Shown piece after piece: positions 1,155 through 12,882 of a DNA stretch of 64,000 nt; position 1 is the first letter of the stretch; each line of letters begins with the position of its first letter. The stretch is from Candidatus Acidiferrales bacterium (GTDB lineage: Bacteria; Acidobacteriota; Terriglobia; Acidiferrales; UBA7541), in NCBI GenBank assembly GCA_050747245.1, contig JBOGNO010000006.1, positions 26,005 to 90,004 of the forward strand, read 5' to 3'. The notes beneath the pieces are model-generated. The model searched no databases. It was not told where the DNA came from and saw nothing but the letters and a program-made list of their open reading frames with translations. A program made the translations under genes and the position numbers.

Positions 1155-2219
1155 CTACTTGTGCTGAATGGCGGCTGGAGAACGCTGGGCATCGAGGGGC
1201 GTGAGCTGGACGCGCCAAGTGAGCGGGATGGACATTGGGAGATAGCAAACCTTCTTGTCGCAAGCCTGATATTTCAATTCACCGACAATATCGATGGCTT
1301 TTCCCGAGGGCGCGAGCGAATGGATCAGCTCGTCGGAGGAAGCGAATGTCACGTCCTGGGCGATGCGGAATTTGCCTTCGAAGACGGGGACAGTCTCATT
1401 GATGGCCTCGAGATGTAACATTTTAGAGGCGGGATAAGAAGTTGGGCCGGCGTGGAAATCAGGAGCGGGTTGCAGAGAAAGAGATATGGGCTTGTAGCCT
1501 TTGACGCCCGGGGAATAAACGTGGACCTCGGGCGGGAGCTCGGCTTCGACGAGCAAGGTGATGCGGCTGCCGGGAACCGCGGTGAGGTCCGATTGCGCAA
1601 GAGATATTCTCAGGTGAGGGGCGTTGACGCTTGAGACAGTTTGCTCAGCAAGTTGGGGAAACAATTTCAGAATAACGTTGTTGGGAGTGAAGCGGTCGCT
1701 GAAGCGATCTTCGAAATATTTTTCGCGGATCACGCCCGATTCGTCAATAAAGAAGAATCCCGCAAAAGCCATTCCTTTGGTGAAGCCGGGAGCATGTTGG
1801 GCGAGGACGCCGAAACTGCGGATGATTTTCGAATCGGGGTCGGCGAGCAGCGGGAACTCAATCTTTCTCCGGGAGGAGAAGTCCTTCAGGATTTCCGGGG
1901 AGTCGTAGCTGATGGCGGCGAGCTTGAGGCCCTGGTTTTCAATTCTCTGTTTGGCGGCTTGCAGCTGCACGAGCTGCGCTTTGCAGAAGGGTCACCAATC
2001 GGCGGAGCGGACAAACAGCAGGATGGTGCCGCGGCGGCCACGCAATGTTTCATTGCTCTGTTCATGGCCGAATTGATCGCGGACTGAAAACGCAGGCGCT
2101 CTGGCGCCGACGGCCAGTCCGATGGCGGAAGGATGCGCATCTGACGAAGGAGCACCCGATTGCGCGAAGACGATCGCTGCGAAAAAAAGGACCAGAGCGG
2201 CGACGGACAAGGATTTCAT
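1155..2219 (-). CDS. putative secreted selenoprotein: TlpA/ResA-like redoxin domain with a UxxC motif and an in-frame TGA at 1992-1994, fused to a DsbD-alpha-like domain
   Basis: Track ORFs 1992..2219 and 1155..1970 are in the same frame, separated by one TGA and 7 sense codons. The read-through protein is a signal peptide (MKSLSVAALVLFFAAIVFAQS), then ...ILLFVRSADW-U-PFCKAQL..., a redoxin body (LADPDSKIIRSFGVL, FFFIDESGVIREKYF) and a C-terminal YQACDKKVCYLP motif matching DsbD-alpha. U sits where the first Cys of the thioredoxin-fold CxxC normally is. A SECIS-like hairpin follows. Confidence 0.6.
1957..1984 (-). promoter_or_regulatory. candidate bacterial SECIS stem-loop downstream of the in-frame UGA
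   Basis: The mRNA reads UGA CCC UUC UGC AAA GC-GCAGCU-CGUGC-AGCUGC-AAGC. A perfect 6 bp stem, extendable to 7 bp by an adjacent G-C, carries a 5 nt apical loop CGUGC. Its G and U lie at +25/+26 from the UGA U, against +23/+24 for the conserved GU in E. coli fdhF SECIS. Confidence 0.45.
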
Positions 2220-3025
2220 TGTTCAGCACGCGCAGAAGCCGCGCCCCAGATCCTGCCGCCATTTCCTTCCTGAATGAATGCCACTACGCGGTTGCTGGCA
2301 GCCGATCCACCTTTGAGACCGATGGCGACATCGCCTGAAAACGGCGCGGTCCTGTCCACTTTACCGACTTTCTCCAAGTTTCTCAGAACTGCAACGTAGG
2401 AGAGCTTGCGGCCGGAGTTTTCTCCGCCTTGGACTTGCGACTCGTCGCTGTCGTCGGCAACGGCGAGGATGATGCTCGCTTGCCCGACGCCAGCGGAGGC
2501 GGGCAGCGGGCCGGCGTTGAGGTGCATGGCGAAGCGATGTCCGGAGACAAGATGGATGCCGGAGAGAGTGACTGGGGCTTTCTCCGAACCCGAAGCTGTG
2601 GCGATAGCACGGAGGGCAGTGCGTTCGTCGCTGCCGACAAATTCGAAGCGGCCGTCCACGACCATCTGGGGCGTGTAGGCTTCGGGAATCCGCAGGATTG
2701 AAACGTACGCGCGTTGACGCTCGGTGAAATCGTGCGAGGAAAAAGGATCGCGCCAGCCGCCGTCGTCCCAGTAGTCCACATGCTCGCTGAGGACGATGAT
2801 TTCGGCAGCCGGAACGGGCTGGGAGCGATCCAGATCCGCGAGAAATTTATCGGCGGGAGGGCAACTGGAGCAGCCTTCGGAGGTGAAAAGCTCAACGAGG
2901 ACGGGAGTGCGGGTAGTGGCCCCGGGCGCGGGCGGCACAGGCGCAGGCTCCAATTTGGGGAGAAAGAACGCACTAAGAATAAGTAGTGCTGGGACAGAAA
3001 AAATGACAAGTGCGCGAAGTTTCAT
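2216..3025 (-). CDS. DUF1223 family secreted protein with a CxxC motif
   Basis: A signal peptide (MKLRALVIFSVPALLILSA) is followed by ELFTSEGCSSCPPADKF, typical of DUF1223. Its stop overlaps the start of the selenoprotein gene by 4 nt (ATGA), which suggests an operon. Confidence 0.75.
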   Translation of the reverse strand: MKLRALVIFSVPALLILSAFFLPKLEPAPVPPAPGATTRTPVLVELFTSEGCSSCPPADKFLADLDRSQPVPAAEIIVLSEHVDYWDDGGWRDPFSSHDFTERQRAYVSILRIPEAYTPQMVVDGRFEFVGSDERTALRAIATASGSEKAPVTLSGIHLVSGHRFAMHLNAGPLPASAGVGQASIILAVADDSDESQVQGGENSGRKLSYVAVLRNLEKVGKVDRTAPFSGDVAIGLKGGSAASNRVVAFIQEGNGGRIWGAASARAEQ

Positions 3026-3251
3026 AAAATGTATGCCAAGCAGTTGAGGCCGCAACACCAAATTGGCCCTACCCCTTTCGATGAACAGTATAGAGAAAAG
3101 TTTCGGCTAAATGGGAGTTGCGAGCGGGTGGCTAGGGCGGAATGCTAACGCACGAGTGAGGCGCTGACGCACCTCACCGCCCACAGGGGGATCTGCGTCC
3201 TCCGGTGCGGGACGCAGATCACGAGTTGCCGCGGCAAAAAAATCCCGACTG

Positions 3252-3956
3252 CTAATTCTGGTCCGATTTTTGCGCAGCCACCGGCGCAGAATCGGCGCTG
3301 AAAACGGATACCTCCACGCGACGATTGGCGGCGTTGGCCTTTCTACCGGCACCCTCATCGGCCGGGCGCTGTTTGCCCAGGCCGACAATCTGAATGCGGT
3401 AGAGCGGGATGCTCTTCTCGACGACGAGATAGTTCTGCACAGCTTCGGCGCGGCGGCGGCTCAATTCTAGATTGTAGTCGGCCGGGCCGACTCTGTCCGT
3501 GTAGCCCTCAATGGCAATGAAAAAGCGATGCAGGGATTTTACGTTTTGGTCGACCAGGGTATCGAGCTGTTGCTTGTCCTCATCGGTGAGCTTCGAGGAA
3601 TTGAAAGCGAAGTGCACCGCGGCGTCGCCGGCGGTCTTGTAGGCGTCGAGATCGGCAATTCGTTCGCTGAGCTCGTTTTTCAGATCGCTGCGCACCTGGT
3701 CGGCTTTCGACGAAGCAGCGTCGGCGCGATTGATTGCGTCGCCGGCTCGGCTATCGGCGGACTTGGCCGTTTCGGTGGTGGCGCTCAATACCTTTTCATC
3801 GGTATCGAGCTGTTTCTGGGTCTCGGTGGCCTTGGAATCCACCTGGGAAACCCGCGCGTTTACCGGGTCCACCTGAGTCTGCACGTACTTTTTCGTGGCG
3901 CATCCGGCCAGCAGGAGCACTCCCAGGGCAAGAACGGGAAGGGAATAACGATTCAT
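3252..3956 (-). CDS. OmpA family lipoprotein
   Basis: It has a lipobox (LLLAGC) and a coiled-coil region. The C-terminal OmpA-like domain reads FAFNSSKLT...IEGYTDRVGPADYNLELSRRRAEAV...RRVEV. Confidence 0.8.
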   Translation of the reverse strand: MNRYSLPVLALGVLLLAGCATKKYVQTQVDPVNARVSQVDSKATETQKQLDTDEKVLSATTETAKSADSRAGDAINRADAASSKADQVRSDLKNELSERIADLDAYKTAGDAAVHFAFNSSKLTDEDKQQLDTLVDQNVKSLHRFFIAIEGYTDRVGPADYNLELSRRRAEAVQNYLVVEKSIPLYRIQIVGLGKQRPADEGAGRKANAANRRVEVSVFSADSAPVAAQKSDQN

Positions 3957-4416: not shown

Positions 4417-5901
4417 ATGCGATTGCATGTACGGTCCCGTCGTCGCGTAGCACGGCCCGGAAACGGCATGTTGCGGCTTCTTGCCGCGACAGGTCTTTTC
4501 GTAGTCGCGATCTTTACGATGGCGATGCTGGTAGAAGCTCAGAACGTAACTCTGCATGATCCCGGCGTGCGCGGCGGGACAATTGATTCCGGACAGCCGC
4601 TCTCAACGCTCACAGCCGCACAAGGTCAGTTTTTCGCGGACGGACTCGGCCGGTTTATCCAGGTGGATTCCGTCAGTGGGAATGGCGGATCCATCACCAA
4701 CGAACCGGGGGTAGGTCTGGGGCCGCGATTCAACAACAACTCCTGCGGAGGCTGCCACTCGCAGCCCGATGTCGGCGGGACAAGCCCTCGTGCCGACCAG
4801 TTCCCGTTCATCGGACCCAACCCGCAGACTCAAGTCTTCAACCTCGACGGGGCGCAGAACACGCTGCCCTCATTCATCACCTCGGATGGGCCTGTGCGCG
4901 AAGCGCGGTTCAAGTTTTTTTTGAATCCCGACGGTTCGCTCAGTAGCAATCCGGACGGAGGCGTTCATGACCTGTTTGTGATCGAGGGGCGCTCGGATGC
5001 TGCGAGTTGCGAGCTTGAACAGCCAAAGTTCAGCCACAACCAGGCTCTAAATAACGTGATCTTCCGGATTCCCACGCCCACGTTCGGCGAGGGATTGATT
5101 GAAAATATTCCGGACGAAACCATCCTCGCGAACATGAATGCCAACGCCGCGCAAAAACAGGCGCTCGGCATTTCCGGGCATCCCAACCACAATGGAAACG
5201 ATGGAACGATCTCCCGGTTCGGCTGGAAAGCTCAGAACAAATCGCTCGAGATTTTCGCGGGCGAGGCGTACAACGTCGAAATCGGCGTGACCAATGAGTT
5301 GTTCCAGAATGAGCGGCCGAGCCCTGACGAGGAACAAAAGAACGGCCTTCCGGCAAGTTGTAAGCTGAACCCGACGCCGGAAGACTCGACGAACTTCGCG
5401 CAGGGAACGAACGGAAACGCAAGCATCCCGAGCGATACAGTGCAGTTCGCGATGTTCATGCGGTTCCTCGCTCCGCCCACACCTTCGACCACGAATCCCG
5501 GAGGAGCGACGTCGATCGCGAACGGCCGCGAGGACTTCATCGACATCGGCTGCGCGATGTGCCACACGCCAACGCTGAAGACGGCGCACTCATCGTTCAC
5601 CTCGGGATTGGATAACGTCAACGCAAACCTGTTCTCCGATTTGCTCGACCATCACATGGGCACGAATCTGGCAGACGGCGTCTCGCAAGGAGGCGCGGGA
5701 ACGGACGAATTCCGCTCCGCACCGCTGTGGGGCCTCGGGCAGCGCATTTTCTTCCTGCACGACGGGAGGACACGCGACCTGCTGGATGCGATTGAGGAGC
5801 ACTCCAGCTCCGGATCGGAGGCCAATACAGTAATTCAAAACTTCAACAACCTCACACCACAGCAGCAGCAGGATCTTCTGAACTTCCTGCGGTCGCTGTA
5901 A
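4417..5901 (+). CDS. di-haem oxidoreductase (DHOR/DUF1111-like, putative cytochrome c peroxidase-type)
   Basis: A strong RBS (AAGGAGG, 6 nt spacing) precedes the ATG. It has a signal/TM N-terminus and two CxxCH haem motifs (SCGGCHS and GCAMCHT). The C-terminal FFLHDGRTRDLLDAIEEH is like the DHOR family. Confidence 0.7.
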   Translation: MRLHVRSRRRVARPGNGMLRLLAATGLFVVAIFTMAMLVEAQNVTLHDPGVRGGTIDSGQPLSTLTAAQGQFFADGLGRFIQVDSVSGNGGSITNEPGVGLGPRFNNNSCGGCHSQPDVGGTSPRADQFPFIGPNPQTQVFNLDGAQNTLPSFITSDGPVREARFKFFLNPDGSLSSNPDGGVHDLFVIEGRSDAASCELEQPKFSHNQALNNVIFRIPTPTFGEGLIENIPDETILANMNANAAQKQALGISGHPNHNGNDGTISRFGWKAQNKSLEIFAGEAYNVEIGVTNELFQNERPSPDEEQKNGLPASCKLNPTPEDSTNFAQGTNGNASIPSDTVQFAMFMRFLAPPTPSTTNPGGATSIANGREDFIDIGCAMCHTPTLKTAHSSFTSGLDNVNANLFSDLLDHHMGTNLADGVSQGGAGTDEFRSAPLWGLGQRIFFLHDGRTRDLLDAIEEHSSSGSEANTVIQNFNNLTPQQQQDLLNFLRSL

Positions 5902-6376: not shown

Positions 6377-7095
6377 GGCGATTTCCTTTCTTGAGCACGC
6401 CGAGGATACGCTTCTCGTCGTTCTGTGTCACGATTCCTGGCGCCTCGCACTAAACTTCTCACGAGGTAACGATCTCCTTTGAACTCCGTTCCCTATCATT
6501 CGAGCAGAAACTCAGCAGGCATACTGCGGAAGAGGGCGACCTCACAAACGAGCGCGTTTGTTCCCCCTCCCGTACATCTAAGTTCCGCACGGTTGGAAAT
6601 CAAGGGGCGCGGCACGCATAGCAAAGAAGCGGGCGTTCAGGAGAGCGGTCCGGCTTTTTGGGAATGAACGACCCAACGTGTGGTGAGTGTCCAGGTTTCG
6701 GAGGAGGGATGCGTACCTGCCTGATAGGGCACGGGGGAGGGCGCAGTGCAGGAGCGGAGGAATGGCAAATGATAAAATTCGCAGTGAAGACGTTGGAGGA
6801 GTAAAACAGGACCCCCTCTCGCATCACGGTCCGTGGGATTTATTTCCTCGATTGTAGGGTTTCCAAAATAGTTCCCCTTCCCGAAGCAAAACGCAAGATG
6901 CGGAAGATTGCCGTTCCTCTTGCGGGAAGGGAAGTTTGTGTTTTTGGCCCGACTGAACATCGAAATTGAGGCTGAGCATACCCGAGACGGTGCCTTGGCC
7001 GACCCCTCGCGCGCGAAGCAGTTCGAGAAGACCAGCTACACCGCTCCCTCCCAACGATTCCTGATTCCAAGTGGTGGCATGTTGAGGTGCAAAGA

Positions 7096-9192
7096 ATGAG
7101 AGCTCAAATTGAATACATCATTCCTATGGCCAGCAGCCTATTGAGTCGAGTGATCAAGAGACGACTCTGCATCATTATGGGACGCGGCTGCTTGGGCGTG
7201 GCCGCTGCGCTGCTCGCGGCGTCGCACTCGGCTCAAGCACAAAAACAAAAGCAGGATCCTTCCTCAATGAGCATCGAGCAACTGATGCAGATTGAGGTGA
7301 CTTCGGTTTCGAAGACCAATCAACCACTTGCACACTCTGCCGCGGCAATTTACGTCATCACGGATGAGGACATTCGACGTTCCGGAGCAACGAATATTCC
7401 AGACCTGCTGCGCATGGTGCCCGGTTTGGATGTGGCGCAGATCAACGCGCACACCTGGGCGATATCCGCCCGCGGCTTCAACGGGCGCTTTTCGAACAAG
7501 CTCCTCGTTCTGGTAGATGGGAGGACGGTTTACTCCCCGCTCTTCTCCGGAGTGTATTGGGACATGCAAGACGTGCCGCTGGAGGATATTGACCGGATCG
7601 AAGTGATTCGGGGTCCCGGCGCCGCGCTGTGGGGAGCGAATGCCGTCAACGGGGTCATCAACATCATCATGAAAAAAGCGAAGGACACACAGGGTGGGCT
7701 TGTCAGGGCCCGTGGTGGAAGTAGCGTGCTCGGCGCCGGGACAATCCGGTACGGAGGCGAGATCGGCCCGGACGTGCACTACCGTGTGTATGGAAAATAC
7801 TTCAGAAACAATCACTTTGAACTTGCCGGGGGCGGAAGCGGATTGGATCAATGGCAGATGGAGCGCAGCGGCTTTCGTGTGGATTGGGATTCGACTTCGG
7901 GGGATTCCATTACTCTCGAAGGGGACTTCGGCGGAGGAAGTGAGAGTGAGAAGTTGCTAAAGTTCGTATCTTTCACGCCACCCTTCACACGACTGATTAC
8001 CGACCCGATTGAGGCGACGGAGGAAAACATTTTGGCCCGCTGGAATCACACTCTCTCCGGCGGTTCGAAGCTTTCCTTGCAATTGTATTTCGATCGTACG
8101 AATCGGGGTGAGGCGACTTTTGGAGAAAATCGCAACACCTATGACGCGGATCTCGAGCACAACATCTCGCTGGGGGATCGCCACAATCTAATTTGGGGAC
8201 TCGGCTATCGCTGGACTTCGGACGAGATCGGAGCCAGCTTCGGAGAATCTTTCACACCGCAAGCCCGCGGAATTCAGCTTTTCAGCGCGTTCGCACAGGA
8301 CGAGATCAAGCTGGTCGAAAATCATCTGACGCTGACGCTGGGCTCGAAATTTGAGCGCAACGATTTCACGGGGTTCGAAATCCAGCCCAATGTCCGGGCG
8401 ATGTGGACGGTCAATTCGCGGCATGCACTGTGGGGTTCGATTGCTCGCGCGGTGCGATCTCCGGATCGAGCTGAAGCTGACGTGCAATTCGTGCAGCAGG
8501 CAGTACCACTCGGCGGCGGAGCTGTTGGTTTTGCCACTATCTTCGGCGATCCTGATTTCCTCTCGGAAGATTTGGTGGCGTACGAAGGCGGTTACCGCGT
8601 TCAACTCTTGAAGAACTTGAGCCTGGATTTCGCAGGGTATTTCAATGGCTACACCAACCTAGAAACAACCGAACCCGGAACACCATTCATCCAACAGAAT
8701 CCCGCGCCGCCGCATTTGATTCTTCCTCTGTTCTTTGACAACCGAAAGCACGGGAGTACCCATGGAGTTGAAATCAGCGGCAATTGGTATGTGACAAAGA
8801 AATGGCGGATAAGCCCCAGCTACACTTGGATCGCTGAAGACCTGAGACTCAACGCCGGCTCTTTGGCGTCTCCGCCACCGCGAAACACCGGCGACGACCC
8901 CGGGAATCAATTCCAGGTACGCTCGCTCATCGATCTGCCAAAGCACCTGGAATTCGATAGTTCATTCCAGTATGTTAGCCGGCTTCCAGCGCAGGCCCTC
9001 TCCGGCTACACAAGGTTCGACACGCGCCTCGGCTGGCGTCCCCGTGATTCTTTCGAACTCAGCGCCGTCGTGCAAAACGCATTCAGCGCCCAGCACGCGG
9101 AATTCACGAGGAGCGTGTTAGGCGAAGTTCCCACGCTTGTCCCTCGCAGCGCCTATTTGCAGGTCACATGGCGATTCGAAACGAAGAAATGA
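7096..9192 (+). CDS. TonB-dependent receptor
   Basis: GAGGTG lies 6 nt before the ATG at 7096. A long signal peptide is followed by a plug domain (IEVTSVSK..., DIDRIEVIRGPGAALWGANAVNGVINII) and a beta-barrel region, ending in the terminal aromatic W-R-F. Confidence 0.85.
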   Translation: MRAQIEYIIPMASSLLSRVIKRRLCIIMGRGCLGVAAALLAASHSAQAQKQKQDPSSMSIEQLMQIEVTSVSKTNQPLAHSAAAIYVITDEDIRRSGATNIPDLLRMVPGLDVAQINAHTWAISARGFNGRFSNKLLVLVDGRTVYSPLFSGVYWDMQDVPLEDIDRIEVIRGPGAALWGANAVNGVINIIMKKAKDTQGGLVRARGGSSVLGAGTIRYGGEIGPDVHYRVYGKYFRNNHFELAGGGSGLDQWQMERSGFRVDWDSTSGDSITLEGDFGGGSESEKLLKFVSFTPPFTRLITDPIEATEENILARWNHTLSGGSKLSLQLYFDRTNRGEATFGENRNTYDADLEHNISLGDRHNLIWGLGYRWTSDEIGASFGESFTPQARGIQLFSAFAQDEIKLVENHLTLTLGSKFERNDFTGFEIQPNVRAMWTVNSRHALWGSIARAVRSPDRAEADVQFVQQAVPLGGGAVGFATIFGDPDFLSEDLVAYEGGYRVQLLKNLSLDFAGYFNGYTNLETTEPGTPFIQQNPAPPHLILPLFFDNRKHGSTHGVEISGNWYVTKKWRISPSYTWIAEDLRLNAGSLASPPPRNTGDDPGNQFQVRSLIDLPKHLEFDSSFQYVSRLPAQALSGYTRFDTRLGWRPRDSFELSAVVQNAFSAQHAEFTRSVLGEVPTLVPRSAYLQVTWRFETKK

Positions 9193-12700: not shown

Positions 12701-12778
12701 TGGCGGGGCCGACGGGACTCGAACCCGCGACCTCCTGCGTGACAGGCAGGCGTTCTAAACCGACTGAACTACGGCCCC
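12701..12778 (-). tRNA. tRNA-Asp (anticodon GTC)
   Basis: A manual cloverleaf fold gives acceptor GGGGCCG/CGGCCCC, D-stem GUUC/GAAC, anticodon stem CCUGC/GCAGG with loop CUGUCAC, a T-arm with GUUCGAGU, discriminator G and an encoded CCA. Confidence 0.9.
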
Positions 12779-12806
12779 GCGAATTAAAGCTTGCAGCTAA
12801 ACTCTG

Positions 12807-12882
12807 TGGTGGGCGGTCACAGACTTGAACTGTGGACCTTCCCGGTGTAAGCGGGATGCTCTAACCACTGAGCTAACCGCCC
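12807..12882 (-). tRNA. tRNA-Val (anticodon TAC)
   Basis: A manual fold gives acceptor GGGCGGU/ACCGCCC, D-stem GCUC/GAGC, anticodon stem UCCCG/CGGGA with loop CUUACAC, T-stem CACAG/CUGUG with loop UUCAAGU, discriminator A and an encoded CCA. Confidence 0.9.

Follow-up and report, generated by a model that had tools for sequence, protein, structure and literature searches.

Organization of the locus

The DNA analyzed here (the window) is a stretch of 64,000 nucleotides (nt) from a Candidatus Acidiferrales bacterium (assembly GCA_050747245.1, contig JBOGNO010000006.1, positions 26,005-90,004 of the forward strand). Three genes follow one another on its minus strand: one for an OmpA-family lipoprotein, one for a DUF1223 protein with a CSSC motif, and one for a redoxin domain fused to a DsbD-alpha domain, interrupted by an in-frame TGA. 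The last of these almost certainly encodes a selenoprotein, and its recurrent pairing with DUF1223 genes points to a periplasmic reducing pathway. A preliminary description of this DNA had joined the three genes into a candidate redox module of the cell envelope. All of its elements are indeed present on the minus strand, although the interval it gave, 2216-3956, takes in only the OmpA-family and DUF1223 genes, and the selenoprotein gene occupies 1155-2219. The features are as follows.

3252..3956, minus strand: OmpA-family lipoprotein gene (PF00691, E=1.3e-20; lipobox LLAG-C, cleaved before C, seen in the sequence)
3150..3251, minus strand: predicted intergenic RNA structure 3' of the OmpA stop, two hairpins (free energy and shuffled sequences)
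2216..3025, minus strand: DUF1223 gene with ATG start, exported thioredoxin-fold protein with CSSC (PF06764)
2872..2861, minus strand: codons of the DUF1223 CSSC motif (from the sequence)
2216..2219, minus strand: ATGA overlap of the DUF1223 stop (TGA, 2218..2216) and the selenoprotein start (ATG, 2219..2217)
1155..2219, minus strand: selenoprotein gene, 354 codons; predicted signal peptide, peroxiredoxin (Prx)-like redoxin domain (U76-P-F-C79) and DsbD-alpha-like domain
2160..2219, minus strand: predicted Sec-type signal peptide, MKSLSVAALVLFFAAIVFA followed by Q (from the sequence; the N-termini of relatives are similarly hydrophobic)
1992..1994, minus strand: in-frame TGA, read as selenocysteine at the N-terminal position of UxxC, motif ADW-U-PFC
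1953..1985, minus strand: putative element resembling a bacterial selenocysteine insertion sequence (bSECIS), from conservation of stem, loop and synonymous sites
1707..2111, minus strand: predicted Prx-fold redoxin domain, residues 37-171 (Pfam; AlphaFold2 (AF2) model of the Cys homologue P0012)
1233..1580, minus strand: DsbD-alpha-like domain, residues 214-329, with the Cys pair C320/C325 in YQACDKKVCY (PF11412)

Evidence for selenocysteine at the in-frame TGA

The preliminary description had called the third gene a selenoprotein, and comparison with homologues bears this out. A protein search yielded 1959 homologues of the redoxin fusion. Among the 120 listed from which residues were counted, the position of the putative selenocysteine (Sec) holds Cys in 99, "W" in 18 and "R" in 1. 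The DNA of one contig with "W" (L002) has TGA at this position, and the 30 nt that follow are identical to those of the window though the proteins are only ~62% identical; the "W" of the JGI proteins is thus a read-through artefact. A scan with one genome per species yielded 588 relatives, and the best 80 loci, all of them from Terriglobia-type metagenome-assembled genomes, were analyzed. The codon at the Sec position is TGA in 72 of these loci and TGC or TGT in 8, and the reading frame is kept on either side of the TGA. The alignment of this codon with Cys in homologues, and with TGA in so many loci, is beyond chance. An alternative genetic code was rejected, because TGA is the ordinary stop codon of the DUF1223 gene in the same operon.

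Downstream of the TGA lies a potential hairpin, GCAGCU-NGUNN-AGCUGC, whose stem begins 14 nt after the UGA and whose loop G is found 21 nt after it. In the window the upper stem GCAGCU/AGCUGC pairs 1977..1972 with 1966..1961, the GU of the apical loop at 1970..1969 is invariant, and a 3-bp lower helix is possible between 1985..1983 and 1955..1953. The hairpin satisfies the bSECIS rule of a stem-loop close 3' of the UGA with G or GU in the apical loop. The bSECISearch model of Zhang and Gladyshev reportedly describes a stem-loop with an apical-loop G about 16-37 nt from the UGA. The exact stem was found in 65 of 67 distinct TGA sequences and in none of 7 distinct Cys sequences (Fisher p=2e-8), and the loop GU in 67/67 and 0/7, respectively. 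A contrast of synonymous sites between TGA and Cys genes was used in place of base-pair covariation: in the TGA genes these sites are frozen within the stem, while third positions are free to vary in the flanks. Folded as a single sequence, the 70 nt after the UGA were no more stable than shuffled sequences (z=+0.75), and an Rfam search gave no SECIS or other RNA match at the hairpin. We conclude that the in-frame UGA is, with near certainty, decoded as Sec, a step that the hairpin would aid.

Calls at NCBI, ENA and JGI split the selenoprotein gene into a 75-amino-acid (aa) open reading frame (ORF) and one of about 270 aa (about 273 aa for L099:10001-11694; L109:4887-5957; L111:4995-6065), so that selenoproteome surveys and proteomics databases miss the protein. 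The "W" seen at the Sec position (P0001-P0005, P0007, P0019 and others), where callers render TGA as Trp, is a useful marker of hidden selenoproteins in JGI data. One metagenome contig, L001, has CGA (Arg) in place of the TGA (8229-8231) with the hairpin intact. Its DUF1223 gene (7120-7933) is frameshifted, which together with the CGA change would indicate either that the two genes have decayed together or that the contig is misassembled.

Domains and predicted fold of the selenoprotein

The product of the redoxin gene, which starts 75 codons ahead of Sec as in most relatives, matches the Pfam families AhpC-TSA (PF00578; E=3.4e-26, 92 bits against a cutoff of 26) and Redoxin (PF08534; E=1.4e-16, 61 bits against 26.6). 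A DsbD-alpha domain had been proposed from the sequence. This assignment is upheld by a match to DsbD_N (PF11412; E=6.8e-9, 36.2 bits against a gathering cutoff of 25) and by the Cys pair C320 and C325 (C-x4-C), which is invariant in alignments A1 and A3. Pfam found no DsbD_TM domain in the selenoprotein, so it is not a full-length DsbD or ScsB.

The fold was modelled with AF2 on P0012, a natural Cys homologue that is 60% identical to the window protein. Both domains were modelled with confidence (predicted template-modelling score, pTM, 0.76), and the solved folds nearest to the N-terminal domain are those of Bcp4, AhpE and AhpC (E about 1e-10, target-normalised TM about 0.8). By this model, the redoxin domain adopts a peroxiredoxin-type fold. 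The peroxidatic signature P-x3-T-x2-C is absent, the motif being R-S-A-D-W-U-P-F-C, with Sec in place of Thr. All equivalog models for peroxiredoxins scored far under their cutoffs. No NCBIfam model attains its cutoff on the selenoprotein, the best similarity being to thiol peroxidase. Together, the sequence and the model predict an exported Prx-fold protein with a thioredoxin-style U-P-F-C centre, fused to an immunoglobulin-like DsbD-alpha domain that has its own Cys-x4-Cys pair.

The DUF1223 protein

The DUF1223 gene product matches PF06764 (E=9e-55, 186 bits against a cutoff of 30.7) and the structure PDB 2AXO (E=1.3e-24). The site ELF-S-x-GCSSCPPA and a hydrophobic N-terminus or export signal are kept across phyla, the first Cys of CSSC being invariant and the second nearly so. 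The window protein is 100% identical to an NCBI protein of "Candidatus Acidiferrales" that is called with a later start. This start lies 29 codons too far downstream, and the signal peptide is lost from the annotation. The statement in the preliminary description that DUF1223 proteins have no known function is nearly right, but one member of the family, SrlA of Sinorhizobium meliloti, has published stress phenotypes: it is needed for tolerance of salt, H2O2 and cumene hydroperoxide (PMC9561847).

Conservation of the DUF1223-redoxin pair in Terriglobia

ORFs around the 80 loci were clustered and mapped onto a tree of the redoxin proteins. Two forms are distinguished: a short form, including that of the window, with about 75 residues before the Sec, and a long form with an N-terminal extension. 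Of the 49 short-form loci, 30 have a DUF1223 gene immediately upstream in the same orientation, compared with 0 of 33 long-form loci. Recurrence of DUF1223 beside this redoxin type had been put forward as the test of a module, and the short-form loci pass it. When DUF1223 was taken as the starting point, three acidobacterial homologues lay on long contigs, and two of them are followed by a redoxin gene split in annotation. Where protein identity is down to about 50-60%, the two genes still stand side by side in the same orientation, with changed surroundings at either end. Upstream, relatives carry an EthD or a deoxyribosyltransferase-like gene; downstream they carry DoxX, OsmC-like or ApbA genes or a DUF2282-DUF692-DUF2063-DoxX operon, often with a gene for an extracytoplasmic function (ECF) sigma factor. 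Genes for the Sec-containing OsmC-like protein, DoxX, Hvf/MbnB, EthD, CcdA/DsbD_TM and TlpA-like proteins were sought in the window and none was found near the pair, the only ECF-sigma and DoxX matches being weak and about 30 and 34 kb away.

Translational coupling of the two genes had also been proposed. The ATGA overlap on which it was based is real in the window, but it occurs only in this genome; the spacer in relatives is usually 65-80 nt, so that any coupling is a local feature and not one of the family.

Two other predicted selenoproteins were noted in these genomes. The gene after the redoxin in relatives encodes a protein of the OsmC family and contains an in-frame TGA that is conserved (...ISATAG-U-MMGTFGG...; L003:9316-9600, L001:9118-9612 and more than 30 other loci). 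It is called as ORFs of 67 and 93 aa and appears to be a second selenoprotein of the array, without a signal peptide. The long-form paralogue, of about 431 aa (P0024; loci L040-L082), has ~75 extra N-terminal residues with a weak DUF5818 match; most copies retain the Sec, and they have no conserved neighbours and never DUF1223.

Link to DsbD-type reductases

Cys-type orthologues of the short form are encoded in a row consisting of the fusion gene, sometimes DUF3179, then DsbD_TM, a TlpA-like lipoprotein and CyaY, in 3 of 3 independent contigs. A DsbD_TM and TlpA-like pair, 74-77% identical, also follows the TGA-type gene in L051 and L066. Because DsbD_TM and TlpA-like proteins are encoded alongside it in these contigs, the fusion family belongs to a predicted split DsbD-type reducing system.

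DUF1223 neighbourhoods outside the Acidobacteria were surveyed by tblastn against plasmids and chromids; DUF1223 was present in 42 records, of which 25 were examined, and five unannotated plasmid records were screened by local tblastn. Genes for DsbD/ScsB, or for CcdA plus thioredoxin, stand beside DUF1223 in 6 of the 25 replicons, from alpha- and beta-Proteobacteria. A full DsbD/ScsB (DsbD_N + DsbD_TM + Thioredoxin_7) is encoded directly downstream of DUF1223 in two Burkholderia replicons, Paraburkholderia largidicola and Methylobacterium bullatum, while thioredoxin and CcdA genes adjoin DUF1223 in Sphingomonas hankookensis and Rhizobium leguminosarum. Other neighbours include ECF sigma/NrsF (7 loci), CopD (5), Prx-like (4) and MsrQ/P-like pairs (2), as well as DsbA genes. 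Counterparts of these neighbours are found in the Caulobacter sigmaF/NrsF regulon (PMC3511200) and in the bufferin operons (PMC11626156). The context is that of the housekeeping gene acnA in 4 loci, and nothing recognisable was found in 7. Gene order thus demonstrates, at the level of sequence, that the fusion family is part of a split DsbD-type system and that adjacency of DUF1223 to such genes recurs in two phyla. The similar pairing in unrelated bacteria suggests that DUF1223 proteins are clients of a periplasmic reducing pathway.

Further associations were seen in individual replicons. On a Sphingomonas paeninsulae plasmid (L096:2335-4609), a bufferin-type operon, DUF692-DUF2063, ends with DUF1223, which shares 10 nt with the DUF2063 gene, and this operon lies downstream of an ECF sigma/DUF1109 pair. 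In Rhizobiaceae (L093, L098, L101, L112 and L113), a CopD-family copper-resistance gene is found about 1-3 kb from DUF1223, together with Prx-like and YghU/GST genes.

A candidate envelope thiol/selenol relay

We lean, if only slightly, toward an envelope thiol/selenol relay in which the selenoprotein, through its DsbD-alpha domain, services DUF1223 under oxidative or metal stress. Electrons from cytoplasmic thioredoxin would cross the membrane by way of a CcdA/DsbD_TM protein encoded elsewhere in the genome and would then arrive, probably through a TlpA-like protein, at the DsbD-alpha domain of the selenoprotein. That domain could hand them on both to the selenol/thiol centre of its own polypeptide (in cis) and to DUF1223 (in trans), which would be kept reduced in the oxidising envelope. 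The reductant of DUF1223 might be either the alpha domain or the U-x-x-C centre, and the Prx-fold domain might act either as a gamma-like relay or as the terminal catalyst. A precedent for clients of this kind is ScsB, which reduces the periplasmic Prx-type proteins PprX and PrxL as well as ScsC (PMC3322552). The pair would serve repair or detoxification in the envelope under oxidative or metal (copper-type) stress. Such a role is suggested by the neighbours in relatives, namely the ECF sigma factor, the Sec-containing OsmC-like protein, DoxX and the DUF2282-DUF692-DUF2063 metallophore operon, and the SrlA phenotype agrees with it.

Several observations weigh against this relay. The pairing is facultative, given that 19 of 49 short-form loci and every one of the 33 long-form loci do without DUF1223. 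Inheritance may account for some of the synteny, as the acidobacterial loci all belong to a single class. Of the 25 proteobacterial DUF1223 loci, at least 19, among them the four in the acnA context, lack a neighbouring DsbD/CcdA gene. SrlA with the C61S substitution still complements the salt phenotype (PMC9561847), and the CxxC of DUF1223 is therefore not needed for every function. As to the source of electrons, no CcdA/DsbD_TM gene was found in the 64-kb window. The tRNA-Sec and other Sec machinery were likewise not found there, a result that we judge neutral for the Sec assignment. Base-pair covariation gave no usable signal among 67 hairpin sequences, a count that is uninformative because the stem is nearly invariant. 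Finally, we infer electron exchange between the selenoprotein and DUF1223, and its direction, from their adjacency, the one kind of evidence that bears on either.

The locus can be explained in other ways. It is hardly credible that translation really ends at the TGA, or that this codon is the lesion of a pseudogene, so that the locus would encode a 75-aa peptide and, apart from it, a protein of 271 aa, as in public annotation. Gene callers do split the gene, the single-sequence fold is no stabler than shuffles and no Sec machinery was seen in the window; yet the TGA stands exactly at the catalytic Cys position in 72 loci with the frame kept on both sides, the synonymous-site conservation of the hairpin is confined to TGA genes, and a split product would lose the first active-site residue and half of the redoxin fold. 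A more serious contender, though still an unlikely one, is a self-contained periplasmic selenoperoxidase. Here the Prx-fold U-x-x-C centre would reduce peroxides or protein sulfenic acids and be recycled by the fused DsbD-alpha domain, with DUF1223 co-regulated and acting in parallel without electron exchange. In its favour, the folds that come closest are those of true peroxiredoxins, thiol peroxidase gives the highest NCBIfam similarity, the Sec-containing OsmC-like neighbour in relatives belongs to a hydroperoxide-reductase family, and the long-form paralogues retain Sec in the absence of any DUF1223; moreover, ScsB feeding PprX is a precedent for peroxide reduction in the envelope (PMC3322552). 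However, the signature P-x3-T-x2-C is replaced by a thioredoxin-style U-x-x-C, and the comparable Caulobacter PrxL has no detectable peroxidase activity (PMC3322552). A selenoperoxidase would also leave unexplained why DUF1223 stands beside DsbD/ScsB and CcdA in Proteobacteria, where no such Prx fusion exists.

The remaining explanation is that the two genes are neighbours by descent in Terriglobia with no functional coupling, and that the proteobacterial DsbD/CcdA genes reflect a coincidence of envelope-stress islands. This would account for the origin of all 80 loci in one class, for the loss of the pairing in 19 of 49 short-form loci, for fluid neighbourhoods of the kind indicated by the absence of the partner genes OsmC and Hvf from the window, and for the lack of DsbD/CcdA beside most proteobacterial DUF1223 loci. 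We consider it improbable in view of a pair that stays adjacent and co-directional at about 50-60% identity despite changing outer flanks. In addition, a DsbD_N-bearing or CcdA-type reductase recurs by DUF1223 in four proteobacterial genera in varied arrangements, far more often than the ~0.5% that we roughly estimate for a random gene, an excess on the order of 50-fold.

Beyond the relay in Terriglobia, the same data allow a broader and more tentative proposal, which we regard as possible but short of likely. DUF1223 may be an unrecognised, widespread client class of DsbD-alpha-type reductases in copper and oxidant defence, beside a sigmaF/NrsF-type regulon (bufferin operon, MsrPQ, ScsB). Terriglobia would have built a dedicated soluble Prx-selenol/DsbD-alpha arm of it, co-encoded with the OsmC-like selenoprotein. 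If this is true, the supply of selenium would directly tune how well the abundant Acidobacteria of soil resist envelope stress.

Comparison with known systems

UxxC Prx-like selenoproteins and relays from DsbD to its clients are already known. In E. coli DsbD (alpha-beta-gamma; clients DsbC, DsbG and CcmG), as in the window, a DsbD-alpha domain with a redox Cys pair is found by a periplasmic thioredoxin-fold partner. The electron-import logic would be the same, a DsbD_TM gene being linked in the Cys-type orthologues of the fusion. In the window, however, the alpha domain is detached from the membrane domain and lies C-terminal to a Prx-fold domain whose centre is predicted to use selenocysteine, and DUF1223, its candidate client, is not known to be a substrate of DsbD. 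In Caulobacter, ScsB (with TlpA, PprX, PrxL and ScsC) is likewise a DsbD-class reductase that supplies Prx-type and thioredoxin-fold clients for envelope stress defence (PMC3322552), and full ScsB/DsbD-type genes stand directly after DUF1223 in Burkholderiaceae and Methylobacterium. In contrast, the alpha domain and Prx-like client of the window form one Sec-bearing polypeptide with no adjacent membrane component, and DUF1223 is not among the reported ScsB substrates (PMC3322552).

Among predicted selenoprotein families, a "Prx-like thiol:disulfide oxidoreductase" (PF00578, UxxC) and a "Redoxin family protein" (PF08534, UxxC) have been listed (PMC13188914). They share with the window protein the AhpC-TSA/Redoxin domain and the U-x-x-C motif, and Cys homologues are more numerous overall; that review, however, describes no DsbD_N fusion, export or DUF1223 partner. 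SrlA and Atu2684 (PDB 2AXO) belong to the same Pfam family as the window DUF1223 and are exported thioredoxin-fold CxxC proteins with a role in envelope stress (PMC9561847). SrlA differs in standing in the acnA context without a DsbD-type neighbour and in being controlled by CenK-CenR, and no reductant has been proposed for it (PMC9561847). Genes of the sigmaF/NrsF regulon and of bufferin (DUF2282-DUF692-DUF2063-DoxX) operons (PMC3511200, PMC11626156) are found on the flanks of the pair in relatives, as well as around DUF1223 in Sphingomonas, Paraburkholderia and Rhizobium. However, neither DUF1223 nor the Sec-redoxin is a reported member of either, and the window lacks these genes near the pair.

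Four features were described nowhere in the literature searched: the fusion of an alpha domain to a Sec-containing Prx domain, its abundance in Terriglobia, its absence from annotation, and the link between DUF1223 and DsbD. DUF1223, a family with a crystal structure since 2005, one genetic phenotype and no mechanism, gains a concrete and testable partner pathway (DsbD-alpha, ScsB, CcdA) and is tied to a set of genes for metal and oxidative stress, among them the bufferin metallophore operons described recently. The analysis also brings to light an abundant, predicted exported selenoprotein of soil Acidobacteria, and with it what would be a new architecture for a periplasmic reducing pathway, in which the alpha domain has left the membrane transporter and joined a Sec-containing Prx-fold domain.

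The OmpA-family lipoprotein and other features of the window

The suggestion that the OmpA-like lipoprotein anchors the module to the envelope was not supported. No other DUF1223-linked locus has an OmpA-family gene adjoining the pair. The sole same-strand OmpA match upstream lies about 2.6 kb away in L054, a long-form locus without DUF1223. In the window, a gap of 226 nt separates the OmpA stop from the DUF1223 start, and two hairpins are predicted straight after that stop (minimum free energy -51.4 kcal/mol, z=-3.5, 1 of 200 shuffles as stable). The hairpin region, 3150-3251, contains no T-tract and is hence not a canonical intrinsic terminator; the hairpins are probably punctuation between transcription units. 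Since co-location is not conserved and strong hairpins intervene, we rejected the lipoprotein as a member of the module and regard it as an unrelated neighbour.

Divergent from the OmpA-family gene, on the plus strand, are genes for a di-haem oxidoreductase or putative peroxidase (PF06537 DHOR; 4417-5901) and for a TonB-dependent receptor (7087-9192). Both also occur in the sister assembly L099, but other genomes do not have them beside the pair. Two RNA genes alone were detected in the window, those for tRNA-Asp(GTC) and tRNA-Val(TAC), at 12701-12882 on the minus strand.

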